NCBI GenBank assembly: GCA_019057795.1
Contig: JAHLWS010000022.1
Location: forward strand, 13,729-77,728
DNA: 64,000 nt
Source: Promethearchaeota archaeon
GTDB taxonomy: Archaea; Asgardarchaeota; Lokiarchaeia; Sigyniarchaeales; SOKP01
Direction of reading: 5' to 3'
Below, one piece after another: positions 14,946-20,427 of the stretch; positions within the stretch are counted from its first letter, which is position 1, and each line of letters starts with the position of its first letter. The notes under the pieces were generated by a model that was not told the DNA's origin, made no database searches, and saw only the letters and a list, made by a program, of their open reading frames with translations. A program made the position numbers and the translations under genes.

Positions 14946-16091
14946 ATGAATGTTTTATTAACAGGTGCTTTTGGAAATGTTGGATTAAGTACTTTAAAAG
15001 AATTACTAAATAAAGATTATAACGTTAGAGTATTTGAAGTATATAACCGGAAAAATAGAAAATTAGCTAAAAAATTCAAAAACAAGATTGATATTGTTTG
15101 GGGCGACCTTAGAAATAAAGACGACGTGGAAAGCGCAGTTAAAGAACAAGATGTTATTATTCATTTAGCAGCCATTATTCCACCGCTAGCAGATGTCAAC
15201 ACAAGCTTAGCTGAATCCGTAAATGTTGGAGGAACTAAAAATTTGCTCAATGCTATAAAAAATCAAGCCCAAAAACCAAAATTAATTTTTACTTCTTCAA
15301 TTGCCATTTATGGAGATAGACTAGATAACCCAATGATTAAAACTACTGACATCCTTGCTCCAAGTCGCGGAGATTATTATGCTTTGACCAAAATTACGGC
15401 GGAAAAATTGATAAGGAAATCGGGTGTAGATTTTGCAATATTTAGATTAACATATATTACTTCAGTAAACAAATTGAATATGGATCCATTGATGTTCCAT
15501 ATGCCTTTAGATACTTCAATCGAAATTTGTGATACTAAAGATGTCGGACTAGCGCTTGCTAACGCTGTTGAGTGCGATGAGGTATGGGGCGATACGTTCA
15601 ATCTAGCTGGTGGAGAAAGATGTAGAATAACTTATAGAGAGTACCTTAATGATATGATGGAAATTTTTGGGTTAGGTCAAAATTTTTTACCTGAAGAAGG
15701 ATTTGCTGAGAAAGACTTTCATTGTGGCTTTTGCGACACCCATAAGTCCGAAAACCTATTACATTACCAAAGACACACGCTTCAAGATTATTATAAAGAA
15801 GTTGAAAAAAAAGTACGAGCGAAAAGACGTTTTGTGCCAATGGTTAAATGGATAATTCGATTAAATCTCTTAAAAAAATCGGAATTTTACAACAGGTTTA
15901 AGTTTTTTAAGAAAAAAGCTGGAGCTTTTACTATCTCGGAAAATAAATTAATTAGAAAAATCCTTTCAAACAATTTCAATAGGATAGAACTATTAGAAAG
16001 AAAAATCGAAAAGTTAGAAGAGTTAACTTCTGAATTAGTCGAAAAAAGAAGTTTATTAATATCCACGAATCAAAGTCAATCAATAAGCTAA
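14946..16091 (+). CDS. NAD-dependent epimerase/dehydratase (extended SDR)
   Basis: TGAFGNVG, HLAA, TSSIAIYG, YALTK catalytic YxxxK. Confidence 0.9.
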   Translation: MNVLLTGAFGNVGLSTLKELLNKDYNVRVFEVYNRKNRKLAKKFKNKIDIVWGDLRNKDDVESAVKEQDVIIHLAAIIPPLADVNTSLAESVNVGGTKNLLNAIKNQAQKPKLIFTSSIAIYGDRLDNPMIKTTDILAPSRGDYYALTKITAEKLIRKSGVDFAIFRLTYITSVNKLNMDPLMFHMPLDTSIEICDTKDVGLALANAVECDEVWGDTFNLAGGERCRITYREYLNDMMEIFGLGQNFLPEEGFAEKDFHCGFCDTHKSENLLHYQRHTLQDYYKEVEKKVRAKRRFVPMVKWIIRLNLLKKSEFYNRFKFFKKKAGAFTISENKLIRKILSNNFNRIELLERKIEKLEELTSELVEKRSLLISTNQSQSIS

Positions 16092-16402
16092 ATTTATTAA
16101 TCCTCTTGATATAGATTCCTCTTCAAATACTCTTTTTATAACAAAATTTTTATTACTATCAAAAATTTCCATAGTAACTATTTTCGGTTTGGTGCTTATT
16201 TTACTAATTGCGTTATTAAAATTAACTTATACCGCTAAATAGAAAATAATTTAATATAAATAACATAAGAAATAAAATAACCAATAAATTAAATAAAAAA
16301 AATTAAATCTTTCGATATTAGAAGGAGTAAATGTATCGAAAATTAATTGACAACTAAATAGAAATTCAAAATTGTAAAATTTGAGGTGGAGTAAGAAAGA
16401 AA

Positions 16403-18343
16403 ATGGAAAAATCTGAAAATCATCGGATTGGATACTATGCATGCCAGTGAGGTATAAATATACGTAGTAAAGTTGATTGCGACGAGTTAGTACAATTTGC
16501 CAAAGGTTTAGATGATGTAGTTATTTCAAAAACTCATTCCTTTCTATGAACCGAAAGCGGTCAAAACGAGATAATCAAAGACATAGAAGAAAAAGGATTA
16601 AATTGCATCGTAGCTTCTGCTTGAACGCCTAGGACACACGAACCAATTTACAGGGCAACGCTTGCTAAGACCGCTGTGAATCCTTACTTTTTTCAAATGG
16701 TTAACGTAAGAGAGCATTGTTCTTGGTGTACTGAAGATAACGAAGAAGCACTAGAAAAAGCAAAAATCTTGGTTAAAGGCGGAGTTAATAGAGCATTAAG
16801 TTTAGAAGTTGTCCCTGTAAGAACAGTTCCCGTTGAAAAAGCAACCTTAGTTGTTGGCGGAGGAATAGCTGGGATGAACGCCGCGTTAGACCTAGCAAAT
16901 GGAGGGATAAAAGTTTATTTAGTCGAAAAAAATACCACAATCGGGGGAAGAATGTCTCAGTTAGATAGAACCTTCCCAACCGACGATTGTTCGATTTGAA
17001 TTTGCGGACCCAAAATGCTTGAAGTCAATCGCCACGAAAATATCGAGATTCTTAGCTATAGCGAAGTTAAGAAGGTTGAAGGGTATGTTGGAAATTATAA
17101 AATCACCGTTGAGAAGAAGCCACGTTTCATAAATATCGATTGTAATGGTTGTGGTGCCTGTTCTGAAGTGTGTCCGGTATATACTTCGAACTATTTTGAC
17201 GAAAATTTAGGAGTAAGAAAAGCAATAGATATAGCGTTTGGACAAGCAGTACCTTTTTTGTACGACATTAATAGAGATGTATGCGTTGAATGTTTTAGTT
17301 GTGTGGAAGCTTGTGAGTTAGATGCCATTGACTTCAGTCAAGTGCCTGAAGAAGTTATGTTTAATGTAGGAACGATAATAATCGCAACTGGATGGGATAT
17401 TTACGAACCATATGGAGAATACGGATACGGAAAGTTCGAAAACGTGATTCAACAAGCCCAACTTGAAAGAATCTTAGCACCGAATGGTCCATTAGAAGGA
17501 CATGTTCATAGAATTTCGGACGCCAAAAAACCTAAAGAAATTGTGTTTATTCAATGCGTAGGAAGTCGTGACACGGAAAGACCTTATTGTAGTGGCGTTT
17601 GTTGTATGTTATCGTTGAAAAACGGAAAATTGCTTAAAGAAGAATTTCCGGACGCGAATATTACCATCTGCTACATAGATATAAGAACAAACGAAAAAGG
17701 ATTCGAAGAATACTATCAACGAGCTAAAGATTCTGATATCAGGATGATCCGGGGAAAGGTTGGCGAAATTACTGAAGATCCAGAGACTAAAAATGTAAAT
17801 GTTCGAGTTTATTCGTCATTGACTGACGAAATCATTAAAATTAGTGCGGATTTAGTCATTCTATCTACAGCTGCATTACCATCAAAAGGTACGGACCAAA
17901 TAGCTAAAGTATTAAACTTAGATGTCGATAGAAACGGTTTTTTAACAGAAGCTCACTTTGGACTAATGCCACAAGAGACTAAGACTAAGGGAATCTTTAT
18001 AGCTGGGTTTGCTCAAGGACCAAAAAATATTGCGTATTCGGTTTCTCAAGCAAGAGCTGCTGCGAGCAAGGTAGCTGAATTAACTTCTCCTGGAGAAGTA
18101 GACATTGAACTAATAACTGCTGAAGTTAATAACGAGCTGTGTATTTCGTGTAAAAGGTGCGAAAAAGCATGCCCTAAAAACGCAATAACGGTTGTTGGCG
18201 ACGAAGTGGCTATTGTTGACGAGATTAACTGCGACGGGTGTGGTATTTGCGCTACTTGTTGCCCCACTCATGCGATTGACATAAGATGCTATCGAGATTA
18301 TCAATTATTTACTGAAATTGATGGAATCTTAGAAGGAGGTTAA
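16403..18343 (+). CDS. hdrA: Heterodisulfide reductase subunit A, selenoprotein with four in-frame UGA (Sec) codons, 646 aa
   Basis: One frame from ATG 16403 to TAA 18343 with TGA at 16448 (ACQ-U-GINI), 16547 (FL-U-TESGQ), 16622 (ASA-U-TPRTHE) and 16997 (DDCSI-U-ICGPKM). These match CHCGINI, YSCSSDSQ, ASCTPRTHE and DCSLCILAPKM in the Cys paralog at 22814. GGGIAG FAD motif and ferredoxin motifs present. Confidence 0.93.
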
Positions 18344-18348
18344 ACGAA

Positions 18349-18807
18349 ATGGATGATAATTACAAAATTCTAATGTTTGCGTGTTTAAAGTGAGGCTACT
18401 CGGCTGCTGACTTAGCTGGTGTTTCTCGCATGAAATATACGGCGTCGGTAAAGATTATAAAGGTAAGATGTACTGGAAGAGTCGATGTAAAACACATCCT
18501 ACATAGCATAAATGCTGGAGCTGATGGAGTTATGGTCGTAGGATGACGGCCAAATGAATGTCAGTTCAAAAATGGCAATTTTACGGCTCAAAGGCACATT
18601 GATTTAGCAAATAGAATCCTAGACTCTAGAGGATTCGGCAATCAAAGAATTAACATGTACTGGTTAAGTGGAGCAGAAGCAGATAAACTTGTAAAAAGCG
18701 TTGAGGATGCTTACGAAAAAGTAAAAAGATCTGGACCCAATCCTTTAAAAAGCATGGATATTACGAAAGCAAAACAAAAAACATTAACTACTCCCATAGA
18801 AGAATGA
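18349..18807 (+). CDS. mvhD: Hydrogenase iron-sulfur subunit MvhD/VhuD, selenoprotein with two in-frame UGA (Sec) codons, 152 aa
   Basis: Absent from the ORF track. MDDNYKILMFACLK-U(18391)-GYSAADLAGVSR...VRCTGRVD...GADGVMVVG-U(18544)-RPNEC... matches CCNWCSYAGADLAG and GADGVLITGCHIGDC of the Cys paralog at 25920. Ends at TGA 18805-18807. Confidence 0.93.
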
Positions 18808-18860
18808 TTCTTATAAAAAAAATTTAGTTATAAGATGACTTACCTTGCGAAGGAGGGAGT
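18790..18860 (+). promoter_or_regulatory. Eukaryote-like SECIS element (Lokiarchaeota type)
   Basis: AUGAU (18804-18808), helix UCUUAUAA (18809-18816), loop AAAAAAUUUAG, UUAUAAGA (18828-18835), UGAC (18836-18839). This gives a tandem G.A/A.G quartet, a perfect 8-bp helix and an A-rich apical loop. Basal helix ACUCCC (18790-18795)/GGGAGU (18855-18860). Confidence 0.85.
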
Positions 18861-18918
18861 TTAATAATAATTTAATTTGTTAAAATGTGTATTAAATAAA
18901 TAGGTAAATGAAGGAAAT

Positions 18919-20427
18919 ATGGTTCAAGTTGTAAATAGCAAGTTATTTAAGGGAACTTCTCCCAAAGACTTAATGGAGGCTACTTATCAAGCTTCTAGAA
19001 ACTTTCAAGTAAGAGCTTTCTTTGAAGCAAAAGAAGAGATCTTGAAAGTAGGTAAATTTTCTGAAAACGAATTTTACGAAATCCTAGATGCTATGATAGA
19101 TGCCGAAACTGAGCGAAAATTAGTACTGAAAGAATTAAAGGGTAATAAGCCGTTATTTTTAGAAGAAATTGTAAAGATAGTTAAAGATTTCCCTCCTGAA
19201 AATGTTATTAGAGACATTATTTATTTAAAAGAACAAGGGTATGTTCAGGAACATGTGGAAATCAAGACTAAAACGGTAATAAAAAAAATCAAGGGAGAAG
19301 AAAAAGAAGTTGAAGTAAAAGAATTCTTTTATAGGTACCAAGTAAGGGATTTACCAGACGATTTTATTGAGCACTACTTTGAACCTGTTTCTATAGTTTT
19401 TAACGCGGGAGTCTGTTGTCAATGTGGATGGTGTTCTGCGATCTGTCCTGTAAACGCCATTGTAGTGACGGCAGACACTCTTGAAATTGACGAAGATATC
19501 TGCATGAAATGTGGTTTGTGTTTTTCGGTCTGTCCTCGTTCCTTTTCGATAGACCAAGCTAACGAAAGCATTAAAAAGTTAGACAAATCTTTAAAATGGT
19601 CTGACAAAACTGGAGCTTATATTAACGCTTACTCAGCATCAACGACCAAAGATGATATTAAGAAAGTTCGTCAAGATGGTGGTATTGTAACTTCTATCTT
19701 GGAATATCTTTTAGAAAATAATCTTGTTGATGCAATTGTAGCTGTGCAGCATTCTGAAGAATTGTGGAGACCAGAACCTGTAATAGTAGATAATGTGAAA
19801 GATTTATATAAAACGGGTGGAACTAAATATGCAAACTCGCCGTCTTTAACCATCATAGATCAATGTAAGAAATACGAGAAGATAGCTTTCGTTGGGGTGC
19901 CTTGCATGATGAAAGCTATAGAAAAGGGGACTATGTTTCCAAGTGGGTTACCATTTTTTAAAAATATTAAATACAAGATCGGGCTTTTTTGCATGGAATC
20001 ATTTCCTTACGATGGAATAATTAATTTAGCTAAAGATCAGTTTAATAAGGACATAAATGAACTAATCAAAATGAATATTGGAGGCGGTAAATTTATAATA
20101 AATTTGAAATCTGGAGAGCAAATGGATGTACCCCTTAAAGAAGTGAAAAAATACGCGCGCGATAATTGTCATTTTTGTGAAGATCTAACGTCAGATTACG
20201 CCGACATTTCTGTAGGATCAATTGGGTCGCAAGATGGATGGTCTTCTGTAATAACGAGATCGAAAGATGCAGATAAACTATATAACGATATAGTTAAAGC
20301 AGGATTAATCGAATCTAAGAGTTTAAAGGATGTAAAGCCCGGGCAATTTCTAGTAGAAAAAATTGGTGGAACTAAACGAAAAAAATGTAAATCAATAAAT
20401 TTGAAAGAGAATCAAGATGAGCACTAA
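18919..20427 (+). CDS. FrhB/FdhB-family F420-binding subunit with N-terminal winged-helix-like extension
   Basis: Two ferredoxin motifs, RQDGGIVT, VGVPC, IGLFCME, CHFCEDLTSDYADISVG. About 150 extra N-terminal residues. Confidence 0.88.
   Translation: MVQVVNSKLFKGTSPKDLMEATYQASRNFQVRAFFEAKEEILKVGKFSENEFYEILDAMIDAETERKLVLKELKGNKPLFLEEIVKIVKDFPPENVIRDIIYLKEQGYVQEHVEIKTKTVIKKIKGEEKEVEVKEFFYRYQVRDLPDDFIEHYFEPVSIVFNAGVCCQCGWCSAICPVNAIVVTADTLEIDEDICMKCGLCFSVCPRSFSIDQANESIKKLDKSLKWSDKTGAYINAYSASTTKDDIKKVRQDGGIVTSILEYLLENNLVDAIVAVQHSEELWRPEPVIVDNVKDLYKTGGTKYANSPSLTIIDQCKKYEKIAFVGVPCMMKAIEKGTMFPSGLPFFKNIKYKIGLFCMESFPYDGIINLAKDQFNKDINELIKMNIGGGKFIINLKSGEQMDVPLKEVKKYARDNCHFCEDLTSDYADISVGSIGSQDGWSSVITRSKDADKLYNDIVKAGLIESKSLKDVKPGQFLVEKIGGTKRKKCKSINLKENQDEH

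Follow-up and report, generated by a model that had tools for sequence, protein, structure and literature searches.

The locus described here raises the question of how six in-frame UGA codons distributed over two neighboring genes, hdrA and vhuD, can be read as selenocysteine (Sec) when the two coding sequences are only 5 nt apart and a single SECIS-like hairpin follows the second of them. The pair was studied within a stretch of 64,000 nt (hereafter the window) that belongs to an assembly of a Loki-type Asgard archaeon of 4.95 Mb with 31% GC in 87 contigs. As judged from sequence comparisons, the six UGA codons of both genes are very probably recoded as Sec by the hairpin after vhuD alone.

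The hdrA-vhuD gene pair and the hairpin at its 3' end

The hdrA gene is preceded by a Shine-Dalgarno-like GAGGTG motif (16383-88) and contains in-frame TGA at codons 16, 49, 74, and 199 (nt 16448-50, 16547-49, 16622-24, and 16997-99). A Pfam search of its product revealed the FAD/pyridine-nucleotide oxidoreductase and 4Fe-4S ferredoxin domains that are expected for HdrA, and comparison with three paralogues placed all four UGAs at invariant Cys/Sec columns. The vhuD gene (also named mvhD), whose ribosome-binding site GGAGG (18335-39) lies within the 3' end of hdrA, contains TGA at codons 15 and 66 (nt 18391-93 and 18544-46), and a third TGA (18805-07), the terminal codon of the gene, is at the same time the UGA of the AUGA motif of the hairpin. 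The features of the region are the following, all of them on the forward strand.

16403-18343, + strand: hdrA, 646 codons, four UGA codons predicted to encode Sec, stop TAA
18344-18348, + strand: spacer between hdrA and vhuD, 5 nt
18349-18807, + strand: vhuD (mvhD), 152 codons, two UGA codons predicted to encode Sec; Pfam FlpD, E 3.7e-42
18790-18795, + strand: 5' strand of helix I (lower stem), ACUCCC, inside the vhuD coding sequence; predicted from minimum free energy (MFE) folds and from covariation in orthologues and paralogues
18804-18838, + strand: SECIS core, i.e. AUGA, helix II, apical loop, and GA; 57.3 bits with model R1
18843-18853, + strand: 3' mini-hairpin CCUU-GCG-AAGG (helix III), placed between GA and helix I
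18855-18860, + strand: 3' strand of helix I, GGGAGU; same basis as the 5' strand
18919-20427, + strand: first of two frhB-like genes, without UGA codons; Pfam FrhB_FdhB_N/C; 3' of the SECIS on the same strand

The core of the element starts with AUGA (18804-07) just before a stem of nine positions (18808-16 with 18828-36), in which a U.U opposition (18808.18836) is followed by eight Watson-Crick pairs that constitute helix II (18809-16 with 18828-35). The stem is closed by an apical loop of 11 nt (18817-27, AAAAAAUUUAG) whose first five nucleotides are A-rich and whose final nucleotide is G, and GA (18837-38) stands directly after the stem. The AUGA is located 2356 nt downstream of the first UGA of hdrA, and the SECIS overlaps the stop codon of vhuD. 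A back-up in-frame TAA provided by the 5' strand of helix II (18814-16) is found two codons past the terminal UGA, so that read-through of the latter would extend the protein by just three residues, Sec followed by Phe-Leu.

A first-pass annotation of the window had already described four UGAs in hdrA and two in mvhD, with the genes 5 bp apart, and a SECIS-like hairpin starting at 18804, about 2.36 kb past the first UGA. These statements were all confirmed. The annotation had also stated that the neighboring genes end in TAA, which is true for all six flanking genes checked.

Searches for a second recoding signal

A covariance model of the SECIS core built from related elements (R1) was run with filters off over the whole 64-kb window, as a scan for further elements, and yielded a single significant match, at 18801-18841 (57.3 bits, E 9e-11); the next best score in the window was 16 bits, on the other strand. 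When 35 related loci were scanned with R1, about 21 of them outside the training set, there was exactly one significant match per locus in 35/35, always at the vhuD end. Neither a relaxed core scan nor the R1 scan detected a second element in the hdrA 5' leader. Searches against Rfam returned nothing relevant in the window at the gathering score and nothing at E<=10 in the region 16000-19100, and the RNAz analysis of Mariotti et al. (2016) likewise found nothing else (PMC4989117).

These results bear on the alternative that hdrA is endowed with its own, different recoding signal, for instance a structure or a sequence context that would be neither lokiSECIS-like nor euryarchaeal-like, and that the hairpin serves vhuD only. 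The explicit searches covered two element types, and the hdrA genes of Methanococcales do possess their own SECIS (PMC4989117). Within the hdrA gene of the window two weak look-alikes were found, a GUGA...GA candidate at 17313-17352 in the relaxed core scan and one marginal match at 17413-17451 in the scan for the euryarchaeal (GAA_A) type. Both look-alikes were rejected when the orthologues were inspected, since the pairing of the former was kept in only 2/29 of them and the latter in only 1/29. Synonymous-site conservation along hdrA and vhuD, calculated with 29 orthologues, was without an internal peak (maximum internal z 1.7), and it was high only at the first codons of hdrA and at the hdrA end that overlaps the vhuD ribosome-binding site. 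Moreover, the 5-nt spacer leaves no room for an element. A separate signal for hdrA is therefore regarded as improbable, and a conserved second SECIS in the 5' UTR or coding region of hdrA, which would have spoken against the first-pass annotation, was not found in these searches.

Conservation of the element and its genomic context

The closest relatives of VhuD (66-81% identity) are encoded in MAGs labelled Promethearchaeota, a name that covers Lokiarchaeia together with further Asgard groups. The pattern of four plus two UGAs (hdrA 16/50/75/200, vhuD 15/66) is retained at about 24 orthologous loci from MAGs, and a few orthologues carry three, five, or six UGAs in HdrA. The gap between hdrA and vhuD is 3-6 nt in the orthologues, and the stop codon of hdrA is always TAA or TAG and never UGA, which fits with UGA being recoded throughout this mRNA. 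In the orthologues, the match to the vhuD protein extends precisely up to the AUGA, and an element of the same type was found at the vhuD end in 73 of the 80 loci fetched with VhuD. A frhB-like gene is located about 115-122 nt past the AUGA in 39/39 orthologous loci, which indicates that the element is intercistronic in a conserved cluster, as had been proposed for the window, where the SECIS was placed mid-cluster and upstream of the FrhB genes.

The alignment of 34 diverse elements revealed compensatory changes in 8/8 pairs of helix II, which was 98.9% paired, versus 39-51% when the 3' partner was slid. Because the aligned elements had been chosen by a scan that required pairing, this percentage is partly by construction, unlike the variety of pair types at fixed positions. 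The AUGA (34/34), three As of the loop, the loop-final G, and the A of the GA were invariant across the alignment. Hence, both the conservation of the hairpin in orthologous loci and the covariation of helix II, which had been put forward as checks of the first-pass annotation, were observed.

This pattern also argues against the hairpin being no more than a terminator or an AT-rich palindrome that arose by chance. The hairpin is indeed located at a gene end, and a T4-5 run just past the 3' strand of helix I is present in most orthologues (only T3 in the window); this run could be an archaeal terminator. Nevertheless, little or no variation was seen in the AUGA, the A-run and final G of the loop, and the GA, whereas the stem covaries, and the same element is found in the genome behind unrelated selenoprotein genes (vhuU and prxL). 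In addition, the strict SECIS pattern gave 0 matches in 6 simulated Mb (both strands) versus 11 in the 4.95-Mb genome. A terminator or fortuitous palindrome is thus given almost no weight as an explanation, and the hairpin is treated in what follows as a SECIS.

Besides the core, two further helices were predicted in the element. When only helix II was fixed, folding produced a lower helix, helix II, and a short hairpin inserted between GA and the lower helix's 3' strand in 10/10 elements folded from the genome; in the window, the lower helix comprises 18790-95 with 18855-60 and the hairpin 18843-46 with 18850-53. The lower helix was 85% paired among orthologues, with compensation at 4/6 pairs. 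In 29 more distant elements realigned to the model R2, the lower helix was 89% paired (6/6 pairs covary) and the mini-hairpin 99% paired (2/3 covary), versus 34-59% in a control with the partner slid, although such a realignment is fitted to the model and thereby favors the structure. A three-way junction fold was adopted by 38/48 elements, versus 31% with shuffled flanks, and the loop of the mini-hairpin contained GC in at least 35/48 elements, including those of MAGs labelled Jordarchaeia, Freyarchaeota, and Borrarchaeota. It is conceivable, though on balance doubtful, that the Asgard SECIS, rather than being a plain two-helix hairpin of the eukaryotic kind, is a three-way (k-junction-like) RNA whose short third helix, with its conserved GC-containing loop, is required for the signal. 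If that were true, the third helix could be a docking site that replaces SBP2, or it could permit action over more than 2 kb across cistrons. To our knowledge, no SBP2 is known in Lokiarchaeota.

The 11 strict-pattern elements of the genome include four located behind hdrA-vhuD pairs, which contain 2+2, 2+2, 3+2, and 4+2 UGAs (the last one being the pair of the window) and have one SECIS each with different stem sequences. The three other pairs lie on contigs C5, C42, and C87 (loci L001-L003), and the two genes seem to overlap in C87. The remaining elements follow vhuU, a Prx-like gene (prxL), and small UGA-containing ORFs.

Two of the loci in the genome deserve a separate description. On the minus strand of contig C24 (G000:C24:23574-23608, equivalent to L006 175-209), a full-scoring SECIS with 49 bits in R1, 54 bits in R2, and a complete three-helix fold was observed to which no selenoprotein gene could readily be assigned; apart from a 37-codon CxxC...CxxC micro-ORF (L006 250-363, minus strand) there is no candidate. 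In this micro-ORF, UGA is the last codon before the stop and lies about 40 nt upstream of the SECIS. On contig C78 (G000:C78:176434-176796, equivalent to L009 235-597, plus strand), a 120-codon ORF without a Pfam match carries two consecutive UGAs, codons 83-84 (motif G-C-U-U), and one more as codon 94, and the SECIS starts 9 nt past its stop codon.

The genome also encodes several components of a Sec pathway, some of them as candidates. SepSecS is present (484 bits, above the cut-off), and candidates were found for EFSec (232 bits, on the same contig as the window) and for PSTK, both scoring below the curated cut-offs; there are two selD genes with one in-frame TGA each. No tRNA-Sec was found with RF01852 genome-wide, with ARAGORN run with and without introns, or with Rfam around the EFSec/SepSecS region. 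The published Loki tRNA-Sec harbors an intron in the T-loop, and an intron of this kind would defeat these tools, which may account for the negative result. TGA is an ordinary stop codon elsewhere in the genome, where 321 of 2320 long ORFs terminate with it, and it is not reassigned globally.

The lack of a located tRNA-Sec would be in keeping with a SECIS-independent read-through of the hdrA UGAs as Cys or some other amino acid, or with hdrA being a decaying pseudogene. However, UGA occupies the same four positions in about 24 MAGs within an intact 646-codon frame, neighboring genes are 62-95% identical among the orthologous loci, and the paralogues have invariant Cys at the four corresponding columns. 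The use of TGA as a normal stop elsewhere and the presence of Sec pathway genes likewise speak against such non-Sec reading, which is considered highly improbable, more so than a separate signal for hdrA.

Proposed mechanism and comparison with known systems

The proposal of the first-pass annotation that one distal eukaryote-like SECIS acts for both cistrons is supported comparatively by the finding of one covarying element, and no more, for each hdrA-vhuD pair in 35/35 loci, and also by the conserved UGA positions, the 3-6 nt spacing, the non-UGA stop of hdrA, and the absence of a conserved second element in the searches described above. We therefore favor, with a probability of about 0.88, a model in which both genes share one mRNA, a single SECIS delivers Sec at four UGAs of hdrA and two of vhuD, and the seventh UGA ends vhuD. 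According to this model, hdrA and vhuD would be transcribed as one mRNA, possibly extending into the frhB genes. Because the only SECIS would have to be on the same mRNA as hdrA, we infer that the transcript is polycistronic, and the 5-nt gap and the GGAGG within the hdrA end (18335-39) agree with this view. The RNA between 18790 and 18860 would then fold so that a kink-turn-type AUGA/GA core forms the foot of an 8-bp helix with the A-rich 11-nt loop at its tip, and would recruit the elongation factor specific for Sec, loaded with Sec-tRNA(Sec). Sec would be delivered at the four hdrA UGAs, situated 1.8-2.36 kb upstream of the element across the cistron boundary, as well as at the two vhuD UGAs, 260 and 413 nt upstream of it. 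The seventh UGA, within the AUGA of the element, would be too close for recoding and would terminate vhuD; that the terminal UGA is too close to be recoded was proposed by Mariotti et al. (2016) (PMC4989117).

Two consequences of this arrangement may be anticipated. Both the core and the 5' strand of the lower helix are situated inside the vhuD coding sequence or at its very end, so each terminating ribosome would have to melt the element. Furthermore, under coupled transcription and translation, codon 16 of hdrA would be reached by the ribosome long before the SECIS is transcribed, so that either uncoupled translation or wasted or abortive first rounds would be needed.

The first-pass annotation had presented the arrangement as a new combination of operon organization and eukaryote-like recoding; this part of it does not stand, because the arrangement was published in 2016. 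Mariotti et al. described in Lokiarchaeota a lokiSECIS shared by the pair and placed after VhuD, with as many as six UGAs spread across about 2 kb (PMC4989117), and Huang et al. (2024) reported that the adjacent genes hdrA and frhD (= vhuD) share one eSECIS-like structure across Asgard archaea (PMC11227280). A 2026 review adds no experimental test. The locus is thus an orthologue of the published Lokiarchaeal HdrA-VhuD pair, and the present finding is a correct rediscovery that provides a well-supported further example rather than a discovery.

The element of the window shows every published core feature of the lokiSECIS, i.e. AUGA, a nine-position stem, and an 11-nt loop with an A-rich start and a final AG, followed by GA; in the published elements the last nucleotide of the loop is G, usually preceded by A, and GA or AA comes after the stem (PMC4989117). 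As in those pairs, there is one element, downstream of VhuD and overlapping its stop codon, HdrA contains up to four Sec and VhuD two, the spacer is very short, and the stop codon of HdrA is never UGA (PMC4989117). No difference was found in the core, and the differences consist of the additional lower helix, 3' mini-hairpin, and conserved downstream frhB observed here. The Asgard type I eSECIS-like model also accommodates the element, with its GA_[G/A]A core, an upper stem of 7-15 bp in which no more than 2 mismatches are allowed, and a loop of 8-20 nt; it differs in covering only the core, upper stem, and loop, and no conserved nucleotides were reported across families in the internal loop or lower stem (PMC11227280). 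The main texts of Mariotti et al. (2016) and Huang et al. (2024) model only the core, upper stem, and loop and mention no third helix, and our literature search returned no paper that ties SECIS elements to a three-way junction in the present sense. The lower helix and the conserved 3' mini-hairpin, as modeled here, may therefore be new and would represent a modest addition to the published models.

The element shares with eukaryotic type I SECIS the AUGA/GA quartet, the unpaired As of the loop, a lower helix, and long-distance downstream action, the last of these being deduced for the present locus. It differs from them in its shorter helix II, in the third helix on the 3' strand, in the overlap with a coding sequence and the presumably polycistronic mRNA, and in that it has no Rfam match, although the Rfam library is expected to include eukaryotic SECIS models. 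The VhuD SECIS of Methanococcales and Methanopyrus resembles it in that one 3' element serves two VhuD UGAs, in the hdrA-vhuD synteny, and in that AUGA and GAC/AAC flank the main stem. In contrast, euryarchaeal SECIS elements are built on a GAA_A bulge, and hdrA has there its own element according to the published model. The search for this type, in which the bulge separates two stems and the upper stem has G-C pairs, gave only the marginal match within hdrA at 17413-17451 that was rejected above. The predicted fold also recalls the k-junction (Wang et al. 2014, PMC4005666), in which a helix is followed by a loop, tandem G.A pairs open a second helix, and a third helix lies in the non-bulged strand; linkers are longer here, and the resemblance is restricted to the two-dimensional layout.

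The shared SECIS would constitute the most extreme known case in which one recoding signal serves many distant UGAs in two genes, and it is central to the argument for an origin of the eukaryotic SECIS in Asgard archaea. While the overall picture is unchanged, the locus described here adds to it a clean and well-conserved example, with strong covariation and a third conserved helix that is absent from the published models.
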